Shown here in pieces: positions 2,084 to 25,496 of a stretch of DNA of 64,000 nt. The stretch is from NCBI GenBank assembly GCA_001799635.1, contig MGTV01000008.1, forward strand, positions 879 through 64,878, in the 5' to 3' direction. Below the pieces are notes generated by a model. It worked only from the letters and a program-made list of their open reading frames with translations, was not told the origin of the DNA and did no database searches. Source of the stretch: Elusimicrobia bacterium GWA2_62_23 (GTDB lineage: Bacteria; Elusimicrobiota; Elusimicrobia; Elusimicrobiales; UBA9959). Both the position numbers and the translations under genes were made by a program. The first letter of the stretch is position 1; every line of letters begins with the position of its first letter.

Positions 2084-2099
2084 CGCCCCGCTAAACCCT

Positions 2100-3008: not shown

Positions 3009-3010
3009 CC

Positions 3011-4021: not shown

Positions 4022-4022
4022 T

Positions 4023-4832
4023 ATGAGAAAAGTCCTGCTCTGGCTGTTGAGCTTCTTAATAACCGCCTCTTTTGCCGTCTACCAGCGCGCGACCGGGCCC
4101 ACCTACCCCGTGAAAGGGGGGAAGGTGGAGGGCTCCGGCATCTATTACTACCGCCTGCCGCGCAGCTGCACTTCGGGCGCCAACGACTGCCTCGTCAACG
4201 TCAGCTCCCTCGAACCGGCCGCCGGGCGGCTGGAGTGGCGCCGCTACAAGACCGGCGAACCTTTTACCAGCGTCCCCCTAGAGTTCAAGAACGAACGCCT
4301 CTTCTTCTACCTGCCGCCGCAGCCGCCGGCCGGCAAGCTGGAATACCGCGTCTTCGTGAAGACCGCGCAGGGGGAAACGGAACTGACCTCAAAACCCCTC
4401 GTGGCCCGCTTTAAGGGCGCGGTGCCGGGCTGGATCCTCACGCCGCACATCGTCCTCATGTTCCTGTTCATGCTTTTCTCGGTGCGCATCTTCCTGACGG
4501 CGGCTTTCGGCGCGCCGCCGGTGCGGCATTCCGTGCCCGCCACCTTCCTCTTCCTGCTCCTGGGCGGTTTCGTCTTCGGGCCGGCCACGCAGTATTACGC
4601 CTTCGGGGCTGCCTGGACCGGTTTCCCTTTCGGTTACGACCTTACCGACAACAAGACGCTGCTCATGCTCCTGGCCTGGCTGCCTGCTTTGTGGGCCGTG
4701 CTGAAAGAGCGCCCGGCGCGCCTGTGGCTTAACCTCGCTTTCGCGGTGACCGCCGCCGTGTACCTGGTGCCTCACAGCCTGTTCGGCAGCGAACTGGATT
4801 ACAAGAAAGGCGAAGTGGTGACCGGTAAATAA
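4023..4832 (+). CDS. Hypothetical membrane protein (N-terminal signal/anchor, extracytoplasmic domain, about 4 C-terminal TM helices)
   Basis: ORF packed tightly between hypE and hypF. Hydrophobic segments are readable in the translation. No family recognised. Confidence 0.6.
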   Translation: MRKVLLWLLSFLITASFAVYQRATGPTYPVKGGKVEGSGIYYYRLPRSCTSGANDCLVNVSSLEPAAGRLEWRRYKTGEPFTSVPLEFKNERLFFYLPPQPPAGKLEYRVFVKTAQGETELTSKPLVARFKGAVPGWILTPHIVLMFLFMLFSVRIFLTAAFGAPPVRHSVPATFLFLLLGGFVFGPATQYYAFGAAWTGFPFGYDLTDNKTLLMLLAWLPALWAVLKERPARLWLNLAFAVTAAVYLVPHSLFGSELDYKKGEVVTGK

Positions 4833-7133: not shown

Positions 7134-7201
7134 TTGTGATCCCGATCCGTCTTCGCGGGGCGTTGACAGGTTCAATTAGGAATTAGGAATGAACGTCCCC
7201 T
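7108..7201. repeat. 28-bp perfect inverted repeat (arms 7108-7135 and 7174-7201, 38-nt spacer) spanning the hypF stop codon
   Basis: The left arm AGGGGACGTTCATTCCTAATTCCTAATT is the exact reverse complement of the right arm AATTAGGAATTAGGAATGAACGTCCCCT. Each arm contains a TTCCTAA tandem. Confidence 0.85.
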
Positions 7202-7212
7202 ATAACACAAAT

Positions 7213-7246
7213 AAAAGGCCCCTCTCTTGAGGGGCCTTTTATTTTT
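7213..7246. terminator. Bidirectional rho-independent terminator between convergent hypF and the C11 peptidase gene
   Basis: AAAAGGCCCCTC-TCTT-GAGGGGCCTTTT hairpin flanked by A and T tracts. Confidence 0.75.
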
Positions 7247-7269
7247 ACTTTCGGAATTTTGCGAACTTG

Positions 7270-8676
7270 TTATTTCGCGGTCAGCCACTTTGTGAACTCG
7301 TCCCACTTGCCTTCCTTGGCCCAGGCCAGCTCGTCGTAGTCGGCCTCGTAGCTGTAGGTGGGCAGGTAAGCGGCCACGCCGTAGACCTTCTTGAACTTCT
7401 CGCCGGTCACGCCGTTGTCCACTATGACCTTGTTGTAGAGGTGGTTCATCACCGCCACGGTCCTGGTCTTGAGCGCGCGCGACTTGGTTTTGCCGTGCAC
7501 GTTCTCCATGAAGTGGATGAGGTCGCGCGAACCCGCGCCGCCGAAGGCGGTGGCGCCGGAGAGGGCTTCCTTCACCATGACCTTGTCTTCCTTCATGGCG
7601 AGCTCGGCCCACTGGTCCAGCAGGTTCTTGAAGGTGGCCAGGCCCGAGGTGCGCAGCGCGCTCTGGGTGGCGGCGGTGCCCTGCTCGGCGTAGAAGGCCT
7701 TGTAGCCCTGCACGGCGGCCGCGGCCATCACTTCGGACTTGAGGTTGCCGGAGTTGGCGTGCACCCGGGAGAGGAAGTAGTCGTAGGCCCAACCGTCTCC
7801 GGGTTCGTTCTCTTCGGAGCCCACGGTGAACTTGGCGGCGTCCTTGAGCTCGTAAGCCACTTCGGCCATCTGCATCAGGCAGGCGTCGGAAGCGTAGATC
7901 TCAACGCCGCCCATCTCGCGCACGGCGCGGCCCAGGTTGACCGTGCTGATGCCGTTGCCGGTCTCGTCGTCATAGGAGATGCCCTTGAGCACGGGCTGGC
8001 CGAAGGCCTTGTTCTTCCAGCCGTCGCCGTGGTTCCACACCACCAGCATGTACTTCTTGGCCGGGTAGGCGGTCTTGGCCCATTTGCCGAATTCCACGAG
8101 CTGCTTGTAGTCGCCCATGTCCACGGTGCCCAGGTCGGCGAGCAGCTTGGAGGAGAGGGACCCGTTCTCGCCGTCCTTGGTCACTTCGTAGCGGCGCACG
8201 CCGACCCAGTCGGTGGAGGCGTCCTTGACGGTGGTGACCCGCTTACCGAGCATCATGGGCGGCATGCCGCCCCAGTAAGGGTTGGGCCAGCCGGGATGCG
8301 GTACCGTGGGGCCGTAGGGGTAATCGTCGTACCCGCCGCCGGGATAGCCGGGGTAGGAGGGGGCGGATTCCTTCATGCGGGCGGCCTGCGTCACTATGTT
8401 GATGTTGGCGGTGGGGCCGTACACTTCCATCTCGTTCATGTCCTCGATGACGTATTCCGAGAGGTTGTTCTTGCCGTTCATGAAGACCATGATGGTCCAT
8501 TCTTTGAGGACCCTGGCGTCCTGGGGAGCGCCCGGGAGGGGGGCGGAGACTTCGGACTTCTTGGCCTCGGCCACTAGTTCCCTGACGGAAGGAAGGGTGT
8601 CGAAGTCCAGGGCGGCGGCGGGGGCGGCCAGAAAGGCCGACGCCAGCAGCAGCCTGCTGAGGTTCAGTTTTTTCAT
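7270..8676 (-). CDS. Secreted clostripain-family (C11) cysteine peptidase
   Basis: Signal peptide MKKLNLSRLLLASAFLAAPAAA, WTIMVFMNGKNNLS motif, His motif WNHGDGW, Cys motif ASDACLM. I trimmed the start to ATG 8676, which has an AAGGAGAA Shine-Dalgarno. The track's 9003 start adds an implausible 109 aa. Confidence 0.8.
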   Translation of the reverse strand: MKKLNLSRLLLASAFLAAPAAALDFDTLPSVRELVAEAKKSEVSAPLPGAPQDARVLKEWTIMVFMNGKNNLSEYVIEDMNEMEVYGPTANINIVTQAARMKESAPSYPGYPGGGYDDYPYGPTVPHPGWPNPYWGGMPPMMLGKRVTTVKDASTDWVGVRRYEVTKDGENGSLSSKLLADLGTVDMGDYKQLVEFGKWAKTAYPAKKYMLVVWNHGDGWKNKAFGQPVLKGISYDDETGNGISTVNLGRAVREMGGVEIYASDACLMQMAEVAYELKDAAKFTVGSEENEPGDGWAYDYFLSRVHANSGNLKSEVMAAAAVQGYKAFYAEQGTAATQSALRTSGLATFKNLLDQWAELAMKEDKVMVKEALSGATAFGGAGSRDLIHFMENVHGKTKSRALKTRTVAVMNHLYNKVIVDNGVTGEKFKKVYGVAAYLPTYSYEADYDELAWAKEGKWDEFTKWLTAK

Positions 8677-8812
8677 TAAGTTCTCCTTAACGCAATGATA
8701 GAACGGCACAAGTAGATAATATCCTAATGCCGGAGCCTTGATATGGGCCGCAGGTCCCGGCGGCGGATAGTTTTTTGGCCTATCCCGGCGGGGGACTTTA
8801 GGCCTACGACTT

Positions 8813-8859
8813 CGGTCAAGCCGCGGCGCTTGACCGAGTGGGGCGCGTTGTGTTACTAT
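8813..8859 (+). promoter_or_regulatory. Putative sigma70-type promoter of nikR with an overlapping 9-bp-arm inverted repeat
   Basis: TTGACC (8830-8835), a 17-18 nt spacer, then TACTAT. The palindrome CGGTCAAGC-N6-GCTTGACCG (8813-8836) overlaps the -35 element. Confidence 0.4.
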
Positions 8860-8878
8860 TTCTGTAAAGGTGACACAA

Positions 8879-9289
8879 ATGAATAATAAACAAGTCAGGT
8901 TCGGCGTTTCTCTGGAGGGGGACCTCTTGCGTAAATTCGACGCGTATCTTTCCTCCGAGGGGTATTCCAACCGCTCCCAGGCCATAGCGGGCCTGATCCG
9001 CAAGGAATTCGTTTCCGACGCCTTCGCCCACGGCCGGGCCGTGGCCGGCGCCGTTACCCTGGTCTACGACCATCATAAACGCGAAACGGTGAACCGCCTG
9101 CTGGACATCCAGCACGACCACGGCCCCATCATAATCTCGGCCCAGCACGTGCATTTGGACCACGACAACTGCCTGGAGATCATCGCGGTCAAGGGGCCCG
9201 GCGCCAAGGTGCAGGCGCTGGCCGCCGCGCTCAAAGCGGTAAAAGGCGTAAAGCACGCCACGCTAAGTGTTACCACTTCGGGAAAATAG
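8879..9289 (+). CDS. nikR: Nickel-responsive regulator NikR (ribbon-helix-helix plus C-terminal metal-binding domain)
   Basis: N-terminal RHH (VRFGVSLEGDLLRKFD) and C-terminal H-x-H...C ligand pattern (QHVHLDHDNCLEII). ATG 8879 is preferred over GTG 8870. Confidence 0.85.
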   Translation: MNNKQVRFGVSLEGDLLRKFDAYLSSEGYSNRSQAIAGLIRKEFVSDAFAHGRAVAGAVTLVYDHHKRETVNRLLDIQHDHGPIIISAQHVHLDHDNCLEIIAVKGPGAKVQALAAALKAVKGVKHATLSVTTSGK

Positions 9290-9297
9290 GGGGGATC

Positions 9298-10035
9298 ATG
9301 AAATTCAGAGGCGCCATACTAGTCCTGTTCTTCGGCTGCGGCAGCGCCGCGGCTTTCCATCCGCTCATCGGCGAGGACACCGCTTTCCTCGGCAAGGACG
9401 TCCGCCAGCTGGAGGCCGGCCTGGACTACGCGGTTTCCCGCGAAGGCCAGGACGTTTACGCCACCGCCACCGCCGCGGAACTTTCTTACGGGCTGTTCGA
9501 CCGGTTCGACGTGCTCGTTACCGTGCCGTGGCAGGGGTGGAGTTCTCATGGCCTGTCCGAGAGCGGCCTGGGCGACGTGCTGGTAGAGGTTAAATTCCCC
9601 GCCGGCGCGGGCGCCGGGTGGGACCTGGCCCTGAAGCCCGGTTTCTCGCTGCCCGCCGGGGACGAGGCCAAAAGCCTTGGTGCTGGTGAGGGCGGCGCCT
9701 GGGTGTACGGCATAGCCGGCCGCGCCTCCGGGCCCTGGCAGTTCTACCTTAACGCGGGCTACCTCTACAACCGCAATTCCCTGGACGAGGAAAAGAATAT
9801 TCTAAAGGGTTCCGCGGCCGCGGTTTACGGCTTTCTGCCCAAATGGCTGGTAACGGCTGAACTGGCGGCAGAGACCAATCCCGAAAAAGATTCGGTCTCG
9901 CACCCTGTTTCTTCGGTCTTCGGCCTTGTCTGGTCCCCGCTGCCTTCGCTGGACCTGGACGCCGGCGTCAGGTTCGGCCTTACCAAACCCGCCGATGACA
10001 TGGGGCTGATGGGCGGCATTACTCTCAGGCTCTGA
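9298..10035 (+). CDS. Putative outer-membrane beta-barrel protein (MetA/transporter-like)
   Basis: Signal peptide, alternating beta-strand pattern, aromatic-rich C-terminal strand (GGITLRL). Lies in the nikR operon. Confidence 0.55.
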   Translation: MKFRGAILVLFFGCGSAAAFHPLIGEDTAFLGKDVRQLEAGLDYAVSREGQDVYATATAAELSYGLFDRFDVLVTVPWQGWSSHGLSESGLGDVLVEVKFPAGAGAGWDLALKPGFSLPAGDEAKSLGAGEGGAWVYGIAGRASGPWQFYLNAGYLYNRNSLDEEKNILKGSAAAVYGFLPKWLVTAELAAETNPEKDSVSHPVSSVFGLVWSPLPSLDLDAGVRFGLTKPADDMGLMGGITLRL

Positions 10036-10053
10036 TCCTAAAGGAGATACAAC

Positions 10054-10749
10054 ATGGAAAACAGCGCTATCCTTCTCACCGCGGCTTCGCTCGGGTTCAT
10101 TCATACGGTCCTCGGCCCGGACCATTACGTGCCTTTCGTGGCGCTCTCCAAGGCCCGCGACTGGTCGCAGGCCCGGACCGCGCTCGTAACCTTCCTTTGC
10201 GGGCTCGGGCACGTGCTGAGTTCCGTGCTGATAGGCCTTGCCGGCATCTGGTTGGGCTCGGCCGTTTCCCGTCTGGAATGGATAGAGGGCATCCGCGGCG
10301 ACGTGGCAGGCTGGTTGCTGCTGGCTTTCGGCCTGGCCTACATGGTCTGGGGCATCAAGAAAGCCATAAAAGGAGAAAAGCACACTCACCTGCATTCCCA
10401 CGGCGGGCCGGCGCACGCGCATGACCACGCGCATGAAGCGGACCACGCCCACCCGCACGGTGAGCGGGCTTCGGTAACGCCCTGGGCCCTGTTCATAGTC
10501 TTCATTTTCGGGCCCTGCGAGCCGCTTATCCCGGTGCTGATGTATCCGGCGCTCAAGACCGGTATGGGCCTGGCCCTCGGCGCCGCGGCGGTATTCTCCG
10601 CGGTAACCATCGCCACCATGATGGCTTCTGTTTTCCTGCTGCTGCGCGGCATGAAGCTTTTTCCGGCGGAGCGGATGGAGCGCTACGCGCACGCGCTGGC
10701 CGGCTTCGCCATCCTGGCCTGCGGCGTGGCTGTGAAAGCCGGGCTTTAG
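10054..10749 (+). CDS. Putative nickel/cobalt transporter with a His-rich loop
   Basis: Six predicted TM segments, an HTVLGPDH motif in TM1, and a central loop HTHLHSHGGPAHAHDHAHEADHAHPH. Lies downstream of nikR. Confidence 0.65.
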   Translation: MENSAILLTAASLGFIHTVLGPDHYVPFVALSKARDWSQARTALVTFLCGLGHVLSSVLIGLAGIWLGSAVSRLEWIEGIRGDVAGWLLLAFGLAYMVWGIKKAIKGEKHTHLHSHGGPAHAHDHAHEADHAHPHGERASVTPWALFIVFIFGPCEPLIPVLMYPALKTGMGLALGAAAVFSAVTIATMMASVFLLLRGMKLFPAERMERYAHALAGFAILACGVAVKAGL

Positions 10750-10788
10750 CGCCGAAACGCGCGCGCATTTTGGTAGAATATCACCTCG

Positions 10789-11694
10789 ATGCGCCTGACG
10801 AAAGTCAAACCTCTTCTATTCCTTCCCGCGCTGGCGGCTTCCGCCTGCCTCTTCCTTTTTCCCGACCCGGCCCGCGCCGCCCGCCGTCCAGGACCCTTGG
10901 CGGGCGACTATGTGGAGATAAGTTCTGACACCCTGCTGGACCAGCTCGCCTCCATTCCCGACTACAATATCGTTCCTGACACCGTGCCGGTGACCGAGGC
11001 CGACGTGCTGGAACTGGAAGAGGGCGAGGACGCCGAGACTTACATCTTCATCAGCAGCGCCATGGCCCAGACCCCGGAGCCGGTGAACCTGGGCGGCAAC
11101 GGCAGCCTGACGCTCACCCGCTATGACAACGGTGAAAAGCTCACCGTCCGCTACCGCCGCAAGGACGGCACCTACGACCCGGAGGCTTTCGCGCGGCTGG
11201 ATTACCACATGCGCTGCGCCCTTACCGGCCGCCAGGCGCATATGGCCGTGAAGCTGGTGGAACTGCTCGACGCCGTGGAAGATAAATTCGGCCGCCGGGG
11301 CCTTGTGCTTTTAAGCGGCTATCGCACGCCCAAGAACAACGGCAAGACCAGCGGGGCCGCCAGGCACAGCCTGCACATGCTGGGCTGGGCCGCGGATATC
11401 CGCATCCCGGGCTACAGTTCTACCAAGGTCAGGAATTTCGCGCGCAAACTCCGGGCCGGCGGCATAGGTTACTATCCGTACAAGGGGTTCGTGCACCTGG
11501 ACGTGGGCAAAGCCCGCTACTGGGCCGTCGGCCGGCCGCCCCGCAAGCGCCGCATCCACCGCCGCGCCAAGCAGACCCGCAAGGTGGCCCTTAAACGCTC
11601 CGTTCACCCCTCCCGGCGTCCCGCCGCGGCCGGGAAGCAGTCCAAGCCGGTAAAAGTTTCTTCAGGACGGAAGCCGCTCAAGGAAAGGTCATAG
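10789..11694 (+). CDS. DUF882/YcbK (MepK-like) M15A peptidoglycan peptidase with a basic C-terminal tail
   Basis: SGYRTPKNN...HSLHMLGWAADIRI...GFVHLDV motif set, plus a signal peptide. Confidence 0.75.
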   Translation: MRLTKVKPLLFLPALAASACLFLFPDPARAARRPGPLAGDYVEISSDTLLDQLASIPDYNIVPDTVPVTEADVLELEEGEDAETYIFISSAMAQTPEPVNLGGNGSLTLTRYDNGEKLTVRYRRKDGTYDPEAFARLDYHMRCALTGRQAHMAVKLVELLDAVEDKFGRRGLVLLSGYRTPKNNGKTSGAARHSLHMLGWAADIRIPGYSSTKVRNFARKLRAGGIGYYPYKGFVHLDVGKARYWAVGRPPRKRRIHRRAKQTRKVALKRSVHPSRRPAAAGKQSKPVKVSSGRKPLKERS

Positions 11695-11723
11695 CGCGCA
11701 GGTGTTGAGTGCCTTTGCCCCGG

Positions 11724-11752
11724 CCCCGGTGATCCCGGGGTCGTTCTTTTTT
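11724..11752 (+). terminator. Possible rho-independent terminator
   Basis: CCCCGG-TGAT-CCGGGG hairpin followed by TCGTTCTTTTTT. Confidence 0.4.
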
Positions 11753-11799
11753 GCGCTTATGTTATATAATTACACGGGGGAGAAGTTCCTCGGAATTTT

Positions 11800-12243
11800 A
11801 TGGAAAAACTGCGCATTAAGGAATTCGACACCGTCCAGTTCACCAAGATGGTGCGCAAGATAAAACTGTTCTCCAGCATGCGCATGGACCTGTTGGAGAA
11901 GATCCTGGCGTGGGTGGGGCTGCACGGCTACAAGAAGGGCGAGAAGATCTGCCGCCAGGGCGACATAGGCGACGCCTTCTTCGTGGTCTACGAGGGGAAA
12001 GTGAGCGTCAGCGTAAGGAAGCTGGGCCTGTTCACCAAGCAGATAGCCTTGCTGGGCCCCGGCGATTGTTTCGGCGAGATGGCCCTGCTGCGGCGGGCGC
12101 CCAGGACCGCTACCGTGACCTGCGAAGAGGACACCAGGGTCTTCGTCCTGCTGTCCGACAATTTTAACGCCGCCCTGGAAGGCAACGCGGATTTCGCAGA
12201 GGAAATGCGGCGCCTCGCCGCCGAGCGAGGGTTCACTGTCTGA
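11800..12243 (+). CDS. Cyclic-nucleotide-binding domain protein
   Basis: cNMP-binding signature GDCFGEMALLRRAPRTATV, 147 aa. Confidence 0.8.
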   Translation: MEKLRIKEFDTVQFTKMVRKIKLFSSMRMDLLEKILAWVGLHGYKKGEKICRQGDIGDAFFVVYEGKVSVSVRKLGLFTKQIALLGPGDCFGEMALLRRAPRTATVTCEEDTRVFVLLSDNFNAALEGNADFAEEMRRLAAERGFTV

Positions 12244-14073: not shown

Positions 14074-15015
14074 ATGAAGAAAACCGCCCTTATCACCGCG
14101 ATGCTCGCGCTCTGCGCCGGCGCCGCTTTCGCCGACGGCAAAGTAATCTACGGCTCGGACGACCGCCTGGACATCTACCAGGTCTCCGACGCCCGCCTGT
14201 TGAAGCTGGCCGATTCCACCGTGGGCCTGTTCAACTCCTACGATATCACCGTAGCGGGCTCCAAGGCCAAGCTGGCTACCGAGTCCTACGCGGAAGGCTA
14301 CGGCCTCTGCAAGGAAGAGCCCTTCTACGACCAGGTCACCGGCGCCTTCTGCTCCGGCTCCCTGGTGGCGCCCGATATCATCATGACCGCCGGCCACTGC
14401 GTGAAGAGCGAGGACGCCTGTAAGGACACCAAGTTCGTTTTCGGCTTCGCCGTGAAGACCAAGGGCGTGATGCCCAGCGAAGTTCCCGCTTCCGAAGTGT
14501 ACGGCTGCTCCCAGCTCATCGGCCGCGAGCAGGTTGGCACCGGCGCCGACTGGGCGCTGATCCGCCTGGACCGCAAGGTGGCAGGCCACGCGCCGCTCAA
14601 GTACAATACCGCCGACACCGTTAAGAACGGCGATCCCCTAATAGTCATAGGCCACCCGGCCGGTCTGCCCACCAAGATAGCCGGCGGCGCCACCGTGCGC
14701 GACGCCTCGCCTAAGGGCTATTATGTGGCCAACCTCGACACCTACGGCGGCAATTCCGGCTCCGCGGTGTTCAACGGCCGCACCGGCGTCATTGAAGGCA
14801 TCCTGGTGCGCGGCGAGAACGACTACGTCTATAAGGATGGCTGCCGCGTCTCCAACGTGTGCGCCTCCGACGCCTGCCGCGGCGAGGACGTTACCAAGCT
14901 GTCCGCCATCACCTCGCCTTTCAGCAAGGCCGCTCGCGGCGAAGCTCCCGTGTCGGTGGCCAAGGCCGCCCCGGTCTTCGAACTGCTCAAGACCCTGGCC
15001 CCGGACCTCAACTGA
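14074..15015 (+). CDS. Secreted trypsin-like (S1) serine endopeptidase
   Basis: Signal peptide, His motif TAGHC, Ser motif GGNSGSAVF. Overall layout resembles Glu-specific/V8-like proteases. Confidence 0.75.
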   Translation: MKKTALITAMLALCAGAAFADGKVIYGSDDRLDIYQVSDARLLKLADSTVGLFNSYDITVAGSKAKLATESYAEGYGLCKEEPFYDQVTGAFCSGSLVAPDIIMTAGHCVKSEDACKDTKFVFGFAVKTKGVMPSEVPASEVYGCSQLIGREQVGTGADWALIRLDRKVAGHAPLKYNTADTVKNGDPLIVIGHPAGLPTKIAGGATVRDASPKGYYVANLDTYGGNSGSAVFNGRTGVIEGILVRGENDYVYKDGCRVSNVCASDACRGEDVTKLSAITSPFSKAARGEAPVSVAKAAPVFELLKTLAPDLN

Positions 15016-15036
15016 TCCGGCCCAGCCGCTACAGGA

Positions 15037-15066
15037 AAGCCCCGGTCCGCCGGGGCTTTTCTTTTT
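15037..15066 (+). terminator. Rho-independent terminator
   Basis: AAAGCCCCGG-TCCG-CCGGGGCTTT followed by TCTTTTT. Confidence 0.75.
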
Positions 15067-15108
15067 AGTCCGGACTTTATACACTTGTGAACGCGGTTCT
15101 TTGCGTCT

Positions 15109-16125
15109 ATGGACATAAACTCTTTCGCTGGATCGTTCAGTCAGGCCCTGGACAGGCGCCGGCCGCTTCTGGAGCGGCTTGAGGCCGAAGGCACCGACTG
15201 CTGCCGACTTTTCCACGGCATAGCCGAGGGCTTGCCCGGCCTGACGGTGGACCGCTACGGCCCTCTGCTGCTGGCGCAGACCTTCCGCGACTGCCTCTCT
15301 CCGTCGGAAACGGAGGCGCTGGAAGCGACCCTGCGCAAGGCGCTGCCGGGCGCCCCCGCCTTTGTCTACAACCACCGCGGCAAGAAGGCCGCCGAATCCT
15401 TCGACCAGTGGCACCGGCCCGCGCCCGCGGCGCTGCAGGAATTCACCTGCCGCGAGGGGGGGCTGAAATATCTCATCAAGGCCAGGCACCGCGGCATAGA
15501 CCCCTGGCTTTTCCTGGACCTGCGCGCCGGCCGCCGGGCCGTGCGCGCCGCTTCCGCGGGGGCGAGCGTGCTGAACCTGTTCGCCTACACCTGCGGGGTG
15601 GGCGTCTGCGCCGCCGCCGGGGGCGCCGCCGAGGTCTGGAACGTGGACTTCTCCCAGTCCGGCCTGGAAGTGGGCCGCCGCAACGCCGCGCTGAACGGTG
15701 TTCCCGAAAATAAATTCAAGCTGGTGAACGAGGACTGCCTTACGGTGGTGCGCCAGCTGGCCGGCCTGCCCGTGGCCGGGCGCTACGGCCAGAAAAGAAA
15801 ATACGAGCGCTTCGCCCGGAAGGCTTTCGACCTGGTCTTCCTGGACCCGCCGGCCTGGGCCAAAGGCCCGCTGGCCTCGGTGGACCTGGTGCGGGACTAT
15901 CCCAGCCTGTTCAAACCGGCCGTCCTCGCCGTAAAACCCGGCGGCCGCATAATAGCCGCCAACAACTCCGCCGCGGTAGCTTACGAGGCCTGGGTAGAAG
16001 TGCTGAAGCGCTGCGCGGCCAAGGCCGGCCGCCCCATAAAAGACCTGCGGCCGGTGCCGCCTGACGCCGATTTTCCGTCGTTCGACGGCAAGCCCCCGCT
16101 CAAAGTCGTGATCTGCGAAGTCTGA
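15109..16125 (+). CDS. Class I SAM-dependent methyltransferase, RlmI/YwbD-like
   Basis: SAM motif VLNLFAYTCGVGVCAA and motif IV FDLVFLDPP, with an N-terminal PUA-like region. Confidence 0.7.
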   Translation: MDINSFAGSFSQALDRRRPLLERLEAEGTDCCRLFHGIAEGLPGLTVDRYGPLLLAQTFRDCLSPSETEALEATLRKALPGAPAFVYNHRGKKAAESFDQWHRPAPAALQEFTCREGGLKYLIKARHRGIDPWLFLDLRAGRRAVRAASAGASVLNLFAYTCGVGVCAAAGGAAEVWNVDFSQSGLEVGRRNAALNGVPENKFKLVNEDCLTVVRQLAGLPVAGRYGQKRKYERFARKAFDLVFLDPPAWAKGPLASVDLVRDYPSLFKPAVLAVKPGGRIIAANNSAAVAYEAWVEVLKRCAAKAGRPIKDLRPVPPDADFPSFDGKPPLKVVICEV

Positions 16126-16250
16126 CCCCGCGCCGCCCCGGGAATTTAGCGCTGAGAAACGGCCGCGGACTAAAAGCACGGCCGCTGAAATTAATGTAAA
16201 ATATAGGCAGTAAGGGTCCGGAGACAGCTCCGGAGGTTTGGGATGGTCGG

Positions 16251-16293
16251 GCCGCCATTCCGGTAAATTACCGGACGGCGGCTATTTCTTTTT
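16251..16293 (+). terminator. Terminator-like hairpin in the 260-nt spacer upstream of otsA
   Basis: GCCGCCATTCCGG-TAAATTA-CCGGACGGCGGC followed by TATTTCTTTTT. A second hairpin TCCGGAG-ACAG-CTCCGGA lies just upstream. Confidence 0.5.
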
Positions 16294-19427: not shown

Positions 19428-20098
19428 GAACGACAGCCGTGGAACCGTTCAGATTCTGCACGCGCCTCACGCTCACGGAAGTGACCGGGAGGAAGGCCTT
19501 CAATATAAGCGAACTGCTGGAGGGAATAAGGGCGGCCGACGACGCCGTGATCTACCACCACACCCACCGCTTCATCAAACAGTCCCACCACCTGGTGCCC
19601 GAAGGCGCCAACGACTTCGCTTACTGGGTCACCAATACGGTGCAGGCGGACCGCCTGGGCGAGGAACTGACCTCCATCGATATCGTGCGGTACAATTCGC
19701 TGGCAGATATCCGCAGCGCCTTCGTGGAAATGCTGGAGCGCCACCTCGCCGAAAATCCCGGCCCGCAGCGTACCGTGGCCCCGGGCCGCGAGTTCCACTT
19801 CATGCGGGCCATAAGGTATTCGGTGCCCACGGCCTGCTCGGCGCGCGATTACGCCTCTTTCATAGAGTGCCTGAAGAACGTGAGCGTCTCCAGCCTTTAC
19901 CTGCACGTGTTCGAGGCCAGGCTCCGGCCTCCCTACGGCGTGGACGACTTCTCGCACTGGTTCAGGACCAACTTTGACGACGAGGCGGTGGGCCGCGAGA
20001 TCTCCCGCCTGGACCCCTATTCCTACACGCTCGAAAGCCTGAGGCAGAGAATAATCCGCGTCATAGAGCGCCGCCTCGCGGAGGTGAAAAATGCCTAA
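19424..20098 (+). CDS. Hypothetical protein, conserved-looking (possibly DUF5752-like)
   Basis: ORF overlapping both neighbours in operon fashion. The family assignment is from memory only. Confidence 0.4.
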   Translation: MRTTAVEPFRFCTRLTLTEVTGRKAFNISELLEGIRAADDAVIYHHTHRFIKQSHHLVPEGANDFAYWVTNTVQADRLGEELTSIDIVRYNSLADIRSAFVEMLERHLAENPGPQRTVAPGREFHFMRAIRYSVPTACSARDYASFIECLKNVSVSSLYLHVFEARLRPPYGVDDFSHWFRTNFDDEAVGREISRLDPYSYTLESLRQRIIRVIERRLAEVKNA

Positions 20099-21311
20099 GA
20101 TAGAAGAATACGCGCCAGCGGCGGGCCGCAGCGCCATAGAAGAGCTCAAGGTCCTGGCCGCCAGGCTCGAAGGCAAGACCATCCTCAACGTCAATTCCAC
20201 GGCGGTAGGAGGCGGCGTGGCGGAGATACTCAACCGCATGCTACCCATGATGACGGAGCTGGGGATAAAACCGCGCTGGGAACTCATAAAGGGCGGCGAG
20301 GATTTTTACGCCGTTACCAAGAAGTTCCATAACGCGCTGCACGGCACGCGCCAGGAACTGACCGCCGCCGACTTCCAACTGTACCGCGACACGCTGAAGA
20401 GCAATATGGCGACCCTGAACCTGGACGCCGACGTGGCCCTGATCCACGACCCGCAGCCGGCCGGGCTGATAGAGAAGAAGCCCGCCGGGGCCAAGTGGGT
20501 GTGGCGCTGCCACATAGACCTCTCCAACCGCCAGGCGGACGTCTGGGAGTTCCTGCGCGGCTACGTTTCCCGCTACGACGCCGCGGTCATCTCGGCGCCT
20601 TCCTTCTCCCAGGAACTGCCGGTAAAGCAGTTCCAGGTGCCGCCCTCCATAGACCCGCTCGCCGACAAGAACAAGGACCTCTCGGACGCCGAGGTGGCGG
20701 ACATAATGCGCCGCCTGGAGATCCCGGTCGACAAGCCGCTGATAACTCAGGTCTCCCGTTTCGACCGGCTGAAGGACCCGTTGGGCGTGATAGAGGCTTT
20801 TAAAAAGATACAGCCTTACGTCACGGCGCGGCTGCTGCTGGTGGGCGGCAGCGCCGACGACGACCCGGAAGGTTCCCAGGTGCTGGCCGAAGCCCGCGCG
20901 GCGGCCGAAGGCAACCCCGACATAATAGTGCTCTGCCTGCCGCCCACGTCCAACATAGAGATCAACGCCATCCAGCGCGCTTCGGCGATAATACTGCAGA
21001 AATCCCTTAAGGAGGGTTTCGGCCTGACCGTTTCCGAAGCGCTGTGGAAAGGCAAACCGGTGATAGCCGGCGCGGTGGGGGGTATTCCGTTGCAGATAAC
21101 CCACAAATACTCGGGTATCCTGACGCGCACTATTGACGGCACGGCTTACTGGATGAAGCGCCTCCTGCACGAGCCGGCCTTCGCCAGGAAGCTCGGCGAG
21201 AACGGCCGCGAGCACGTGCGCGAGAACTTCCTGCTGACCCGCCACCTGCGCGACTACCTGCTGCTCGCGCTCTACCTGGAAAGCGGCCGGCGGGACTTCA
21301 TACACCTGTAA
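20091..21311 (+). CDS. GT4 glycosyltransferase resembling trehalose glycosyltransferring synthase (TreT)
   Basis: N-terminal VNSTAVGGGVAEIL and C-terminal EGFGLTVSEALWKGKPVIAG (E-x7-E) motifs, 406 aa, trehalose context. Confidence 0.6.
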   Translation: MPKIEEYAPAAGRSAIEELKVLAARLEGKTILNVNSTAVGGGVAEILNRMLPMMTELGIKPRWELIKGGEDFYAVTKKFHNALHGTRQELTAADFQLYRDTLKSNMATLNLDADVALIHDPQPAGLIEKKPAGAKWVWRCHIDLSNRQADVWEFLRGYVSRYDAAVISAPSFSQELPVKQFQVPPSIDPLADKNKDLSDAEVADIMRRLEIPVDKPLITQVSRFDRLKDPLGVIEAFKKIQPYVTARLLLVGGSADDDPEGSQVLAEARAAAEGNPDIIVLCLPPTSNIEINAIQRASAIILQKSLKEGFGLTVSEALWKGKPVIAGAVGGIPLQITHKYSGILTRTIDGTAYWMKRLLHEPAFARKLGENGREHVRENFLLTRHLRDYLLLALYLESGRRDFIHL

Positions 21312-21374
21312 TCCGGTCTGGAATTCCGAAAACAACGGGTTTGGGACGTTGTTCTCTTTAGTCCGGAACAAAAC

Positions 21375-21469
21375 AAAACCGCGCCTTTGACGGCGCGGTT
21401 TTGTTCTGTTCCGAAGAAGCCTTCTTCTTCGGGCCCGTAACGGCTGCCGGGGTTCGGCAGCGCGGATTT
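21375..21469. repeat. Direct repeat copy 1 (95 bp), includes the treT-side terminator hairpin
   Basis: Identical to 24359-24453 except one base (T 21428 vs A 24412), at an offset of 2984 bp. Contains the hairpin AAAACCGCGCC-TTTGA-CGGCGCGGTTTT. Confidence 0.9.
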
Positions 21470-21779
21470 TGGGGATACTGCAAATTGGCGCGAGCAAGTG
21501 GATGCAAAAACGAACTTTTTGCGGAAGGCCCTCATTGGTAAAAACTACTGGCTGCCTCCCATAAAGATTATTCTGGACATCTTCCGCGTGGGTGGTAAGG
21601 GTGCCGAAAAGAACCTCACCGCAGACCCGAATACCGCTGAACACCCAAAAGTTCAAATCCCGTTGACGCCTAGGTAGCCGGATTCAAACCGCCTTTTTCT
21701 CAACTCTATGGTAGCCGCAGGGCAACCGCCCACTTGACTTATTGCTTTACCTATGCTTTACTTATTGCAAGGGGGAAGC

Positions 21780-22787
21780 ATGCCATTTAATCCCAAGTTC
21801 GTCCCAACCCATCACCTTCTTAAGGTCATTGAGGAGGCTGCTGAGCTTAAATCCAAAATACAGAGCGCCTCGATAGGCGTCAGCTGGCTGCCTGACATGC
21901 AGCGGGAGGCCCTGGCAAGGCAGACCCACGGCTCAACGGCTATAGAGGGCAATCCGCTTACCCTGCCCCAAATTAAGACCCTTGCCGCCGGAGGCACCCT
22001 GCCGGGCGCCAAGCCGCGCGCCGTGCAGGAGATCCTGAACTATTTTGAGGTCCTGCGCTATATCGGTAAGAATTCCGGCATTGCCGCGATAACGGTCAAA
22101 CAGGTTTTAAAGCTCCATGCCATAATAGGCCGCAAGAACGCGCTGGACCGCGGCCCAGTCGGGACTTTCCGGGACTATCAGGTTTTTGTGGGGGGGCATA
22201 CGCCGCCGTCCCCGGCTTCGGTCCCTTACATGACCGCCGAATTATGTGATTGGCTCAATGGTCCCGGCCAGGAGTGGCCCGCACTGATAAGTTCTGCCAT
22301 ACTTCACTACCAGTTCGAGCATATACACCCGTTCGGCGACGGCAATGGCCGCGTGGGCCGGGCGCTTGCGACCTGGGAGCTTTACCGCAAACAGTTCGAC
22401 ACGCACCATATCTTCGCCGTGGATGAAATCATTCTTGAAGACCGGCAGGCGTATTACCGCGCCCTGGACCGTGTCGAAGCGCAGGGAGGGGACGTCTCCG
22501 GCTGGGTGGAGTACTCCGCCGAGACGGTGTTGGCGGCTTTGGAGCGTACCTGGAAGCGTATAGACTCGATACGCGCTATAACGGGTGGCGAGTCGATCTC
22601 TCTGACTAAGAACCAAGAGCGCCTGTTGGCCCTGCTCAAGGAGGCTCCGCGAGGCATACAGGAAATAATGGCGGCGCTGAAAGTGACCAAGCCCGGCGCT
22701 CATTTCATATTAAGGCCGTTGTTGGCAGCCGGGTTGGTAAAGCGCTCCGGCGGTCATAAGACGGGGAAATACTCGCTAAAAAATTGA
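21780..22787 (+). CDS. Fic-family protein (putative AMPylase) with N-terminal inhibitory motif and C-terminal winged-helix domain
   Basis: Active-site HPFGDGNGRVGR at 22326-22361 and the inhibitory-helix motif STAIEGN near aa 50. ATG 21780 with an AGGGGGA Shine-Dalgarno is preferred over 21753. Confidence 0.85.
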   Translation: MPFNPKFVPTHHLLKVIEEAAELKSKIQSASIGVSWLPDMQREALARQTHGSTAIEGNPLTLPQIKTLAAGGTLPGAKPRAVQEILNYFEVLRYIGKNSGIAAITVKQVLKLHAIIGRKNALDRGPVGTFRDYQVFVGGHTPPSPASVPYMTAELCDWLNGPGQEWPALISSAILHYQFEHIHPFGDGNGRVGRALATWELYRKQFDTHHIFAVDEIILEDRQAYYRALDRVEAQGGDVSGWVEYSAETVLAALERTWKRIDSIRAITGGESISLTKNQERLLALLKEAPRGIQEIMAALKVTKPGAHFILRPLLAAGLVKRSGGHKTGKYSLKN

Positions 22788-22839
22788 GCCCATCGGGAAT
22801 CACTTTGACACCTGGACACCGGATTCGCGTTTTTACCCC

Positions 22840-22868
22840 TTGCCAAAGCGTGTTTTACAATGCATAAT
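22840..22868 (+). promoter_or_regulatory. Putative promoter of abiEi-abiEii
   Basis: TTGCCA-N17-CATAAT. An upstream direct repeat GACACC-TG-GACACC (22806-22820) could be an operator. Confidence 0.4.
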
Positions 22869-22894
22869 ATGCCTAGTAACTCGGTATATCACGT

Positions 22895-23467
22895 ATGTCA
22901 AAGAATCGCACAGCTTCAGAAAAACTGTTTGAGATAGCCGAAAGTCAGCAGGGCTATTTCACTTATAAACAAGCGCTATCCGCCGGCTATTACCGGGACG
23001 CCGCCCATTTTTATGCCAAGTCCGGAGAATGGCTGCGTGAACAGCGCGGGATCTATCGCCTCTCAAAATTCCCTGTATCAGATCGCCCGGACCTGGTGTT
23101 GTGGTCGCTTTGGTCTACGGACCGCGGGGGAAAGGTGCAGGGGGTTTATTCCTACCAGACGGCTCTTTCCCTTTACGAGATTACGGACGCTAATCCGGCC
23201 AAGCTCCATATGACCGTCCCACCAAAGTTCCGCAAATTCCATTCTCCCCCTAAGGGTATTGTCCTCCATCGCGCTGAACTGAAAGAGTCGGAAATAAAAA
23301 AACAGCAGGGGTATTATGTGACGACCCCTCTGAAAACCCTGCAGGATATGTATTCCGCGCAACTGATGGACGCCAATGAGATTAAACTGGCGGCTAAGCA
23401 GGCTGTTCGGCTCGGGATTGTGACGCCCACTGAGGCGGATACGGTTTCATCTCTGAAAAATGACTGA
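22895..23467 (+). CDS. AbiEi-family antitoxin / transcriptional regulator (type IV TA)
   Basis: About 190 aa. N-terminal wHTH-like region (QQGYFTYKQALSAGY..YAKSGEWLREQRGIYRL). Overlaps the AbiEii gene by 8 nt. Confidence 0.7.
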   Translation: MSKNRTASEKLFEIAESQQGYFTYKQALSAGYYRDAAHFYAKSGEWLREQRGIYRLSKFPVSDRPDLVLWSLWSTDRGGKVQGVYSYQTALSLYEITDANPAKLHMTVPPKFRKFHSPPKGIVLHRAELKESEIKKQQGYYVTTPLKTLQDMYSAQLMDANEIKLAAKQAVRLGIVTPTEADTVSSLKND

Positions 23468-24323
23468 GTCCAAATCTTATAAATCGGCGAAGGATTTTCG
23501 CGTGGCACTAGAGCACCGGCTGCAGAAGCATGCCGCCGATTCGGGCCCCAACCTGCAGCGCTTGCGCCGGACTGTAGCGTTTAACCGTTTCCTGGCACGC
23601 ATCTTTGCGGACAGGCTTTCACCGTGGGTGCTGAAAGGCGGCTATGCTATGGAGCTACGCCTGCATAGCGCGCGCGCCACGCTGGATGTGGACCTTAGTT
23701 TCCGTGGGTCGCCAAAGTCCGGCACCGAAGCTCAAACTGATTACTTGCAGCGGCTTTTGGCCGACGCCGCTAAAGCTGATCTGGGAGATTTCTTTGACTT
23801 CGAGATCGGTGGGGTCCAAATGGAGTTGGACGGCCCTCTTTATGGTGGGGCCAGATATCCGGTGCGTTCAATAATAGACGGGAGGCTGTTCGTTTCTTTT
23901 CACGTTGATGTTGCTGTGGGCGACTTTATCCCGGTAAAACTTGAAACAGCACACGAACAGGGCCTGCTGTCATTTGCAGGTATAAAATCTTCGACTTTTC
24001 AGGTGATACCGAAGGAGATTCAGTTCGCGGAAAAACTGCACTCCTATACCATGCCGCGCCCGGTGCCTAATTCCCGTGTCAGGGACCTGGTGGACATGGT
24101 CCTGCTTATCCAAGAAGCAAAAATATCCCCGGTTAAAACCAGGGAAGCTTTGCAATCAGTATTCAGCCGGAGGAAAAGCCATGCCGTCCCGGCTATGCTT
24201 AAACCGGCACCGGCCTCATGGGAGAGACGCTTCGTTGAAATGGCTGCGGAGTGCGGCTTGGAAATGGATTTGAGCGCAGGTTTTGAAATACTGAATCAAT
24301 TTTATTTAAAGTTGCGGTCCTGA
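23460..24323 (+). CDS. AbiEii/AbiGii-family nucleotidyltransferase toxin (DUF1814)
   Basis: WVLKGGYAMELRL...TLDVDL motif pattern typical of AbiEii, 287 aa, paired with AbiEi. Confidence 0.7.
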   Translation: MTESKSYKSAKDFRVALEHRLQKHAADSGPNLQRLRRTVAFNRFLARIFADRLSPWVLKGGYAMELRLHSARATLDVDLSFRGSPKSGTEAQTDYLQRLLADAAKADLGDFFDFEIGGVQMELDGPLYGGARYPVRSIIDGRLFVSFHVDVAVGDFIPVKLETAHEQGLLSFAGIKSSTFQVIPKEIQFAEKLHSYTMPRPVPNSRVRDLVDMVLLIQEAKISPVKTREALQSVFSRRKSHAVPAMLKPAPASWERRFVEMAAECGLEMDLSAGFEILNQFYLKLRS

Positions 24324-24358
24324 GAGAACTGAGCTTCTTGGTAATTGCCGAGAAATTA

Positions 24359-24453
24359 AAAACCGCGCCTTTGACGGCGCGGTTTTGTTCTGTTCCGAAG
24401 AAGCCTTCTTCATCGGGCCCGTAACGGCTGCCGGGGTTCGGCAGCGCGGATTT
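24359..24453. repeat. Direct repeat copy 2 (95 bp), immediately downstream of the tRNA-Glu 3' end
   Basis: See copy 1. Ends 17 nt from the tRNA 3' terminus. Confidence 0.9.
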
Positions 24454-24469
24454 CTGCAACAGCATAAAT

Positions 24470-24545
24470 TGGCGCCCCCATGGGGATTCGAACCCCAGAT
24501 CTCTGCCTTGAAAGGGCAGCGTCCTAACCGCTAGACGATGGGGGC
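24470..24545 (-). tRNA. tRNA-Glu (anticodon TTC), CCA encoded
   Basis: The reverse complement folds as GCCCCCA-TC-GTCTAGCGGTTAGGAC-G-CTGCC-CTTTCAA-GGCAG-AGATC-TGGGG-TTCGAAT-CCCCA-TGGGGGC-G-CCA. Confidence 0.9.
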
Positions 24546-24677
24546 GCAAGAACTTCCTACTAGAGAAAAGCCGGCTTGAACACCGGCTTTTATTTTGTAG
24601 AATCATAGTTTACAATTTAGGTCCGCCCCGTGTCAAACCGGGGCTTTTGCGGGCAATTTAACCTCAACGGGGGAAAA

Positions 24678-25496
24678 ATGGCTGAAGAGAACCAGGTACA
24701 GGCGCCGGCCGAAGGCGGGCAGCCGCAGGACGCGAACGCGGAACTGCAGAAGGCCCGCTCCGGCAACAAGGTACTCAAGATAGTGGCTGTAGTGCTGGCC
24801 GTGCTGTTCCTGGTCATGGCCGGGTCCGCCTTCTATATCTACCGCAGGATAGCGCAGACCAAGCTCGCCCTCGAAGAAGCCTTTAACTCGTCGCCTTCTC
24901 CTTTTCCGCAGGGCTCGCAGCCCGGAGTTATGCCGCAGCAGGGCTTCGCCATGTTCGGGAGCGGTTCCGGGCAGTCTTCCAGCCTCGGCCTAATTACGGG
25001 GGCTCCCGGCGGCCAGCCGCAGTTCAGCGCCGAACAGGGCGAGCGGGTGCACGCCGCCATGATGAAATACGGCGAGCGGCCCATAGTCAAGGAGTTCATC
25101 GCCGACCTCAAGAAGAACCCCGACATGGCCAAAGCTTTCGACCAGTCCAAGGGAGGCAACCCGATCGCTGTGATCGCCTCTATACGCAATGCCAAGGGCA
25201 TGGAAGCCCTGGTGGCCAAGTACGCTTACCGGCCCGAATTCCTCTCGCTGATGATGGACGTGATGAAAGACCCCGAGATAAAGCCGCTGTTGAGCGGCAT
25301 GCCCGGTATGGGCGGCGCTATGCCGCAGGCCCCGGTGCCTCCGGCCGCCCCGACCCCGTCCGAATCGCCCGAGCCCTCCCTGGGGGCCGGGGACGCCCCC
25401 ATGGTGCTCGATACCTCGGTGATCAGCGGCACCCCCTCGGAGCCGGCCGCCCGGCCCGCGGTCCGCAAGGCGCCTCCGCCGGTTGACAGCGACTAG
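24678..25496 (+). CDS. Single-pass membrane protein with Pro/Gly/Gln-rich regions (hypothetical)
   Basis: TM helix VLKIVAVVLAVLFLVMAGSAFYIY and low-complexity tails. ATG 24678 is preferred over the track start 24630. Confidence 0.55.
   Translation: MAEENQVQAPAEGGQPQDANAELQKARSGNKVLKIVAVVLAVLFLVMAGSAFYIYRRIAQTKLALEEAFNSSPSPFPQGSQPGVMPQQGFAMFGSGSGQSSSLGLITGAPGGQPQFSAEQGERVHAAMMKYGERPIVKEFIADLKKNPDMAKAFDQSKGGNPIAVIASIRNAKGMEALVAKYAYRPEFLSLMMDVMKDPEIKPLLSGMPGMGGAMPQAPVPPAAPTPSESPEPSLGAGDAPMVLDTSVISGTPSEPAARPAVRKAPPPVDSD

Follow-up and report, generated by a model that had tools for sequence, protein, structure and literature searches.

A Fic-AbiE islet between repeats that carry remnants of a large serine recombinase gene, beside tRNA-Glu of an Elusimicrobia bacterium

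We analyzed a 64,000-nt stretch of contig MGTV01000008.1 from Elusimicrobia bacterium GWA2_62_23, hereafter called the window. Between a treT-like gene and a tRNA-Glu(UUC) gene lies a small islet that encodes Fic, AbiEi, and AbiEii and is bounded by long direct repeats. We consider it fairly likely that the islet is a relic unit lacking a recombinase, part of an array of tandem islands that a family of large serine recombinases (LSRs) built at the tRNA-Glu 3' end. Each 117-nt repeat would be a copy of an LSR-less right-end module, made of two terminator hairpins, the last 17 LSR codons, and a short core. The right copy is joined to tRNA-Glu and would be a junction resembling the right attachment site of an integrated element (attR-like). 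The left copy runs on in frame into a decayed LSR C-terminal tail, tail A, and would be an attP-like junction, that is, the uninterrupted configuration of the element's own attachment site. Such an attP-like joint would form between stacked elements when one of them lands beside the end module of a resident element. The LSR would have been lost and the cargo turned over, with Fic, AbiEi, and AbiEii arriving by horizontal transfer, and any present movement would need an LSR supplied in trans. This proposal is close to one suggestion of an original prediction made from the sequence alone, namely, a decayed island or an element mobilized in trans.

Anatomy of the direct repeats

The prediction had described 95-nt repeats with one mismatch and an offset of 2984 bp. 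Alignment bore this out: positions 21375-21469 and 24359-24453 are direct repeats that differ only at 21428 (T) versus 24412 (A), and independent assemblies reproduce them. The continuation toward the last 6 nt of the tRNA had been called degenerate. It does reach those 6 nt, but it is gapless. When both copies were aligned with four metagenome relatives, the whole repeat was 117 nt long (21375-21491 and 24359-24475) and consisted of the 95 nt, a substituted block of 12 nt in which 9 positions differ, and 10 identical nt. The 12-nt block (the 12-mer) reads TGGGGATACTGC in the left copy and CTGCAACAGCAT in the right copy, and it holds 9 of the 10 mismatches between the copies (Fisher p = 2.6e-10). 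The 10-bp core, AAATTGGCGC, lies at 21482-21491 and 24466-24475 and contains the final 6 nt of tRNA-Glu. These 6 nt, TGGCGC, are the only tRNA portion of the repeat; the remaining 111 nt lie outside the tRNA. A 53-nt sub-pattern of the repeat occurs exactly twice in the window, versus 0 occurrences expected from shuffles. The features of the repeats and their junctions are as follows.

21363..21413, no strand: hairpin H1, complete copy; inverted repeat with 22-nt arms, 95% complementary, bidirectional terminator-like
21375..21491, plus strand: left repeat copy; H1-H2 to 21440, LSR 3'-end remnant 21441-21491, with the 12-mer at 21470-21481 (codons GDTA) and the core at 21482-21491
21441..21491, plus strand: left LSR remnant, 17 in-frame codons, RLPGFGSADFGDTANWR, after a TAA at 21438-21440; homologous to the LSR C-terminal coding end
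21492..21677, plus strand: tail A relic, in frame after the codons NWR; homologous to L001 from 11284, L002 from 3077, L007 from 1812, and the C terminus of P0128 of locus L122
21647..21688, no strand: degenerate palindrome, AAAAGTTCAAATCCCGTTGAC ... GCCGGATTCAAA; marks the conserved left-end region of tail-A-type elements
24359..24475, plus strand: right repeat copy; H1 (outer arm degenerate), H2, LSR 3'-end remnant 24425-24475, with the 12-mer at 24454-24465 (codons CNSI) and the core at 24466-24475
24425..24475, plus strand: right LSR remnant, RLPGFGSADFCNSINWR; tblastn of P0121 residues 484-507 matches 24437-24508 with 83% identity
24476..24511, plus strand: continuation of the remnant open reading frame (ORF), PHGDSNPRSLP and stop, antisense to tRNA-Glu; the tail of integrated intact LSRs
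24470..24545, minus strand: tRNA-Glu(UUC), called by ARAGORN (Rfam tRNA, 67.8 bits); its 3'-terminal GCGCCA, reverse complement TGGCGC, lies within the core

The repeat had been taken for the terminator-rich spacer between treT and the tRNA. This holds for its first 66 nt, the terminator-like hairpins H1 and H2; the left repeat begins inside the left arm of H1. The last 51 nt are instead the remnant of an LSR gene end. The remnants encode RLPGFGSADF-GDTA-NWR on the left and RLPGFGSADF-CNSI-NWR on the right, each after a TAA, and these codons match the ends ...HALPGFGSADF(C/H)NSINWR of the LSRs in L120, L122, P0126, and P0127. At the nucleotide level, 49 nt of the right copy match the 3' end of the L122 LSR gene at 91.8%. 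The 12-mer corresponds to four variable codons, at which real LSRs have HNSI, GNSV, RNSV, or CNCK.

H1-H2 replace the LSR body at the same codon in all copies seen, which are the two window copies and those of L102 to L105. Therefore, the end module looks like a derived unit that arose once. Locus L109 keeps H1-H2 without that H1-H2/LSR joint.

Past the left core, the window reads into tail A. The start of this relic carries the presumed P' half-site. The relic has decayed, with a ratio of nonsynonymous to synonymous substitution (dN/dS) of about 0.8 to 1.0 and a shifted stop. Among L002, L007, and L122, tail A has a dN/dS of 0.33 to 0.44 and conserved stop positions, which is mild evidence, from short sequences, for purifying selection. 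Palindromes homologous to that of the window are found at L002 3243-3290, L007 1968-2013, L001 12711-12747, and L122 around 3590-3620. The junction of treT, core, and tail A recurs in L001 and L002, whose TreT proteins are 92 to 94% identical to that of the window. The conserved "module" after the core had been a candidate for a tRNA-like element or an att arm, and this was dropped once the module turned out to encode LSR tail A. An Rfam search of 21250-24700 and of L001 11200-13008 returned only the tRNA and sub-threshold noise; thus, the module is not a known RNA.

LSR genes and junction classes at the same tRNA

The prediction that the site is targeted at tRNA-Glu found support in sister strains, in which LSR genes sit at the same tRNA end. 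We located LSR-occupied contigs through the identical downstream 272-aa protein (window 24678-25496). Four contigs from the same aquifer population (L114, L116, L117, and L118) have an LSR gene at this tRNA end instead of AbiEii and the repeat. Their right flanks are 99.5 to 99.7% identical to the window, starting from the core or 17 nt before it, so that the site is polymorphic, with islet or LSR, at this level of flank identity. The LSRs have the Pfam domains Resolvase, Recombinase, and Zn_ribbon_recom, and their similarity to SPbeta YokA structures is weak (E = 4e-7). In other genomes of Elusimicrobia (L120, L121, and L123), homologues with 81 to 98% identity also stand at tRNA-Glu and share the synteny of the right flank. 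Within this Elusimicrobia family, the LSR gene sits at the end of the element that is nearest the tRNA.

The LSR ORF crosses the core. It reads ...DF-x-N-S-(I/V)-N-W-R, where NWR is AAT TGG CGC, and then continues antisense into the tRNA. The called proteins end in ...NWRPHGDSNPRSLP or ...NWRPLRDSNP, so that the tail is PHGDSNPRSLP or PLRDSNP followed by a stop, depending on the tRNA variant; the PHGDSNPRSLP tail is identical in P0121 and in the ORFs of L117 and L118. Three LSR endings occur past the core: the short antisense-tRNA tail of the integrated form, tail A (about 48 aa), and tail B (18 aa). Tail B is (R/C)F(L/Q)DIVR(N/T)YFAQHPEVTL and stop in 4 of 5 loci; L122 and L106 have a few additional substitutions. 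The 538-aa LSR P0128 of locus L122 ends in tail A; LSR genes in the attP configuration are present in L122. Because attP lies inside the LSR ORF in these sister loci, integration into tRNA-Glu exchanges the LSR C-terminal tail, and tail A or tail B is replaced by 7 to 11 residues antisense to the tRNA.

The LSR body with its promoter (about 1555 nt) lies between inverted copies, 124 to 127 nt long and 98% identical, of the gene's last approximately 40 codons plus the core. These copies are at 183-306 and 1863-1986 in L120, at 1605-1731 and 3287-3413 in L122, around 300-424 in L123, and across the whole of L117. One inverted copy joins the tRNA or tail A, and the other joins tail B. Relative to L114, L118, and L120, L117 is arranged as the exact inversion isomer, and both isomers are seen. 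The LSR segment appears to flip and to exchange tails.

Junctions with differing right sides (12 loci) have only the core in common, or at a minimum the final 6 nt of it, TGGCGC. The core is followed by the tRNA body at window 24466 and in L102, L103, L117, L118, L120, and L121. It is followed by tail A (module A) at window 21482 and in L001, L002, L007, and L122, and by tail B (module B) in L102, L106, L109, L120, L122, and L123. A shared core with three right sides is what site-specific recombination would be expected to leave if its crossover lay at or within the core. The identity common to all junction types is at most 10 bp (6 bp, TGGCGC, everywhere), which is normal for a serine recombinase. 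Therefore, the long repeat would reflect two homologous end modules and not a long crossover. The unusually long duplication outside the tRNA that the prediction had pointed out would come from two copies of an end module in a tandem array and not from the crossover itself.

The islet has the same bounds as its recombinase-bearing relatives, with module, core, and tail A on the left and module, core, and tRNA on the right. This arrangement fits that of a cis-mobilizable element (CIME) or of a pseudo staphylococcal cassette chromosome (pseudo-SCC) unit. Neither the islet nor the window has an LSR gene of its own, and all that is left are the two 17-codon remnants and the tail A relic; an LSR is present at the same site in L114, L117, L118, and L123.

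Other loci combine the same parts. L102 contains Fic, a decayed LSR-end remnant, a core/tail B junction, 4.9 kb of ORFs without Pfam hits, and then the module, core, and tRNA. L007 has a core/tail A junction followed after 2.7 kb by a pseudo-tRNA-Glu. L109 has Fic-AbiEi-AbiEii, H1-H2, an LSR arm, and a core/tail B junction. L106 has Fic, the arm, a core/tail B junction, about 9 kb of defense-type cargo, and an inverted tail-B-like stretch at the contig end. Judging from these layouts, LSR elements land beside a resident end module, and recombinase-less units with the same bounds are common. The cargo at L106 10001-20723 includes an N6_N4 methylase, an AlwI-type restriction enzyme, and an Mrr nuclease, and this region is probably a nearly complete LSR element with defense cargo.

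In a single exact 25-mer scan of a metagenome collection, the repeat was found in four further contigs, each time as a single copy and always adjoining tRNA-Glu. The 95-bp unit is therefore not the dispersed repeat that would have spoken against the prediction. Past the outer repeat edge, the cargo of these four contigs differs from that of the window and falls into two distinct sets. The left-type 12-mer stands beside an intact tRNA-Glu in L103 and L105, whose right flank is 95.7% identical to the window, and the right-type 12-mer stands beside an intact tRNA-Glu in L102 and L104. The left end of the L102 and L103 islands lies beyond the contig or stretch ends.

In L001, the 3' end of a YhcG-type PD-(D/E)XK nuclease gene (11182-12171, minus strand; DUF1016_N and YhcG_C) is cut off precisely at the end of tail A, which indicates cargo turnover beside a conserved left end. 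A neighboring ORF of L001 (12261-12707) was considered as a recombinase C terminus and rejected: it had no Pfam hit, and its best BLASTP E-value against 120 LSRs was 4.7. In L002, the trehalose operon is present twice (1409-11212), with a core/tail A junction between the copies. In L007 (regions 1802-4534 and 4481-11500), a pseudo-tRNA-Glu (3' half, 4481-4534) stands on one side of this operon and the true tRNA-Glu (11425-11500) on the other. Even the trehalose operon resembles the cargo of an island.

Cargo, composition, and occurrence of the islet

The genes of the islet and its left neighbor are the following.

20091..21311, plus strand: treT-like trehalose synthase (Pfam TreT_GT1, 3.4e-53, and Glycos_transf_1; synteny with relatives)
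21780..22787 (alternative start 21753), plus strand: SoFic-like Fic protein with a C-terminal winged helix-turn-helix (Pfam Fic, 5e-20; PADLOC SoFic, 5.7e-53)
22895..23467, plus strand: AbiEi antitoxin/transcriptional regulator (Pfam AbiEi_4, 2.8e-11; PADLOC AbiEi, 2.7e-60)
23460..24323, plus strand: AbiEii nucleotidyltransferase toxin (Pfam AbiEii, 2.7e-24; PADLOC AbiEii, 7.2e-86)

The treT-like gene is the last of an otsA-TPP-DUF5752-treT operon and forms the left flank of the array. The Fic motif HPFGDGNGR at 22326 (HPFGDGNGRVGR) agrees with HxFx(D/E)GNGRxxR, and the SoFic profile match spans residues 19 to 339. AbiEi and AbiEii are adjacent with an 8-nt overlap, which fits an AbiE type IV toxin-antitoxin or abortive-infection gene pair. 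Fic, AbiEi, and AbiEii probably act as anti-phage or addiction modules, and they would also stabilize the islet.

The prediction had called the enclosed DNA more AT-rich, and composition agrees: the GC content of the islet is 0.537, versus 0.62 to 0.63 in the 10-kb flanks, and third-position GC (GC3) of its genes is 0.57 to 0.68, versus 0.80 to 0.91 for neighboring genes. The three genes and the lack of a recombinase were also confirmed, but the islet does not hold these genes only. It also holds, by the left repeat, the 186-nt relic ORF (21492-21677) and the degenerate palindrome (21647-21688). No recombinase was found in the window by Pfam on the tested ORFs, precomputed Pfam annotation of 10 to 34 kb, or LSR tblastn; the Pfam searches omitted two giant ORFs at 39.3 to 47.7 kb and several short ORFs. 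The low-GC3 region at 48 to 64 kb was considered as a place for a hidden integrase, but ten ORFs from it had no Pfam hit.

The Fic-AbiEi-AbiEii genes are 91% identical to L109 in nucleotide sequence, while the adjoining methyltransferase gene is just 78.7% identical. Judging from this difference and the deviant GC and GC3, the three genes were acquired horizontally. The islet is composite: homology to L109 and to loci that have only Fic starts at 21731/21732 and not at the core, which points to cargo that was replaced later by horizontal transfer inside an older frame. Related genomes have Fic alone or with other cargo.

Three independent metagenome assemblies (ERZ909579, ERZ27254745, and ERZ978281) match the window at 100% identity over all or nearly all of 21300-24600. 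Up to where it ends, a fourth contig also has 100% identity, and a variant strain contig with 97.7% identity has both repeat copies. Since independent assemblies and a variant strain reproduce the structure, it is no assembly artifact. By its TreT relatives, the window belongs among groundwater Elusimicrobia. Every contig that encodes the identical TreT, Fic, or AbiEii has the islet at the same place, and the exact proteins were found nowhere else. Across species, the region 3' of treT is highly variable, and related genomes do not all have the three genes here. Thus, the case that would have refuted the prediction, in which all relatives carry the three genes without repeats, did not arise.

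The empty site that the prediction had proposed to look for in relatives (treT, terminator, tRNA-Glu) was not found for the islet; the LSR-occupied variant was found instead. L007, with treT, about 210 bp, and tRNA-Glu, was considered as an empty site. The spacer there has no relation to the repeat and seems to contain a remnant resembling tail A, and L007 was kept as a distant comparator only. Scans of viral contigs gave no exact match for the repeat, module A, or tail B, and the LSR search there gave one relative with 52% identity. These scans found nothing close, and there is no evidence that the elements are phages.

Four observations concern the surroundings of the islet and one variant of it. 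In strain L083, AbiEi and the start of AbiEii (window 22750-23750) are about 7% diverged, with nearly identical flanks, which suggests allelic replacement by recombination within the islet. In the same strain, a mobile element (14362-15365, from approximately window 24448 onward) interrupts the right repeat just before the 12-mer; its 297-aa ORF runs off the contig and is DDE transposase-like by eye only. The leader of the trehalose operon has an Rfam nhaA-I riboswitch motif (16214-16260, plus strand; 47.4 bits, gathering score 37), and a leader similar to the nhaA-I one is also present in L002 around 3470-3570. Riboswitches of this motif class sense Na+, and one here would tie trehalose synthesis to salt stress. 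The ORFs at 48000-64000 have a GC3 of 0.53 to 0.63 and a strongly negative AT skew on the plus strand, and ten were tested without a Pfam hit; this region may be a second segment of foreign DNA, or it may encode unknown surface proteins.

Origin of the islet and its relation to known systems

Several points weigh against a stacked relic or against its present mobility. Because L109 homology starts at 21731, tail A and the three genes may have arrived separately. When the exact proteins TreT, Fic, AbiEii, and the 272-aa protein encoded downstream were looked up, the 15 to 18 contigs of the same population showed neither an empty site nor a circular junction, and the exact islet had no second location in them. 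The window tail A has a dN/dS of about 1, and about 17 of 25 nt match the consensus by manual count, and the left site may be dead. The left repeat copy is absent downstream of treT in L001. We infer where the H1-H2 part and the left copy came from, as well as stacking as the source of the two copies and the order of events. Finally, characterized LSRs recombine only attP with attB and not attP with attR-like sites (PMC3783163). Stacking would therefore need a target left half-site that is functionally B-type or tolerated, or homologous recombination. An LSR supplied in trans could conceivably still move the islet.

The main rival invokes homologous recombination only and no site-specific step for this repeat. 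Circular or linear DNA of a related strain, with the three genes and a copy of the tRNA-Glu trailer, would have entered by a Campbell-type single crossover or by unequal exchange in the 95 to 117 nt of homology, and the crossover would have duplicated that homology. The copies are identical at 94 of 95 positions, sufficient for RecA-type exchange, and the strict site selectivity of LSRs, the lack of a recombinase in the window, and the recombination-like AbiEi patch of L083 all favor this explanation. However, it has to face the left copy, which is joined to tail A in frame and exactly at the 10-bp core. This joint recurs, in different contexts, in L001, L002, L007, and L122, and homologous recombination inside the 95 nt leaves it unexplained. 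In addition, mismatches at 9 of 12 positions, versus 1 of 105 elsewhere, indicate different arm variants with a switch beside the core, and the incoming DNA would still require an earlier, LSR-made, attP-like joint of block, core, and tail A. We thus regard recombination by homology alone as rather unlikely.

The remaining explanations are much less probable. The suggestions of the original prediction had included an in situ tandem duplication, in which the treT-tRNA spacer was doubled and DNA was then inserted or replaced between the copies. Such a duplication would account for the near identity of the first 95 nt and for an LSR remnant truncated at the same point in both copies. Yet the 12-mers differ at 9 of 12 positions, and each variant stands beside an intact tRNA-Glu in other genomes. 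The left copy continues into tail A and not into tRNA sequence, and one and the same module is found with four different cargos across genomes, all of which makes a tandem duplication very improbable. The prediction had also called for a search for a cognate tyrosine integrase, and a classical tRNA-targeting island, integrated by such an enzyme whose gene was later lost, would fit the position at the tRNA 3' end, the direct repeats, the low GC, and the defense cargo. Against this stand the 6 nt of tRNA in the repeat, the serine recombinase gene remnants that it carries, and the intact LSR genes that abut this tRNA in sister strains; no tyrosine integrase was found among the window ORFs tested or in any related locus examined. 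A tyrosine integrase origin is thus still more improbable than a tandem duplication. A chimeric join at the repeat could be suspected from contigs L089, L100, L101, and L115, which break at or inside it. However, at least 4 independent assemblies span both copies at 100% identity, or are 100% identical as far as they run, and the 97.7% variant strain has the same layout, which leaves an assembly artifact a negligible chance. Two other candidates were rejected. An integron cassette with attC does not apply, as no IntI was found and the repeats consist of terminator hairpins and a remnant of coding sequence, unlike attC. An Xer/dif-type element does not apply either, as no tyrosine recombinase was found and the core appears unlike the dif sequence.

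The closest analogues of the proposed LSR-built array are SCC composite islands with recombinase-less units and CIMEs. In SCC, the LSRs CcrAB and CcrC insert cassettes at the 3' end of one conserved gene, giving tandem stacks with short direct repeats and some units without a recombinase (PMC7029136). As proposed here, the islet would share with SCC an LSR system, the 3' end of a conserved gene, tandem units, and a recombinase-less unit. It differs in its target (tRNA-Glu, versus rlmH in SCC), in its phylum, in the LSR ORF that spans the att core, and in being known from sequence alone. Its repeat is 117 nt long, with a gene-end remnant and terminators duplicated, whereas the direct repeats of SCC are 15 to 18 bp. 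ACME, the arginine catabolic mobile element, and pseudo-SCC units depend on ccr in trans. CIMEs have lost their integration genes and kept their att sites, and they formed by decay and accretion, with accretion-mobilization of the ICESt1/ICESt3 type (PMC5704250). Unlike these systems, which have tyrosine integrases and conjugation, no transfer module was seen here, and the window has no recombinase-bearing partner.

The islet resembles classical tyrosine-integrase tRNA islands and prophages in its tRNA 3' end, direct repeats, foreign composition, and accessory or defense cargo. In those islands, the identity block falls within the tRNA and typically reaches from its anticodon loop or T loop to its 3' end, whereas the repeat of the islet includes only 6 nt of the tRNA, and the recombinases of sister loci belong to the serine family. 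Archaeal "suicidal" integrases of the SSV1, pTN3, and pT26-2 type have att inside the integrase gene and target tRNAs, and their excision may need a related enzyme in trans; suicidal tyrosine integrases were found only in archaea, according to a 2021 review (PMC8371274). As in these systems, the recombination site of the Elusimicrobia element lies within the recombinase ORF, and integration alters the gene. However, the suicidal tyrosine integrases are split into int(N) and int(C), whereas the bacterial LSR keeps its catalytic body and swaps its C-terminal tail only. The LSRs share the Resolvase, Recombinase, and Zn ribbon domains and a short common core with the serine integrases of phages and of integrative and conjugative elements (A118, Bxb1, phiC31, and SPbeta). 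The strict attP x attB selectivity of those systems does not obviously allow stacking. To our knowledge, characterized serine integrases have attP outside the gene and usually target protein genes; their polarity comes from the central dinucleotide of the site. The cargo resembles AbiE and SoFic defense genes in its strong profile matches, overlapping AbiEi-AbiEii, and canonical Fic motif, and its function here is predicted from these features.

In a nonexhaustive check, the literature searched gave no description of a serine integrase with attP inside its own ORF. The repeats could tentatively be relics of a bacterial mobile-element kind that we did not find described, with the LSR attP inside its own ORF and defense cassettes shuffled in trans, although we hold this wider claim to be less than probable. 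Recombinase-less cassettes such as the Fic-AbiE islet may be shuffled in trans at the tRNA on an SCC-like or integron-like platform, and the LSR tail may be a built-in reporter of integration state or a control of directionality.

The islet itself is a modest one, most likely a recombinase-less Fic/AbiE defense relic within an array linked to a tRNA; its repeats expose an unusual LSR system. Stacked end modules with a recombinase gene remnant would explain an odd signature, a long direct repeat that lies almost wholly outside the tRNA and has no integrase. For annotation, this means that "integrase-less islands" beside tRNAs merit a check of their repeats for serine recombinase gene remnants. 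For the biology of an uncultivated phylum, it points to a serine recombinase system with a tRNA 3' end as target, att in its own ORF, and defense cargo (Fic/AbiE here, restriction-modification and Mrr in L106). Should the exchange of tails prove functional, it would provide a natural and self-contained means of sensing or controlling the direction of recombination, relevant to mobile elements and to serine integrase engineering.

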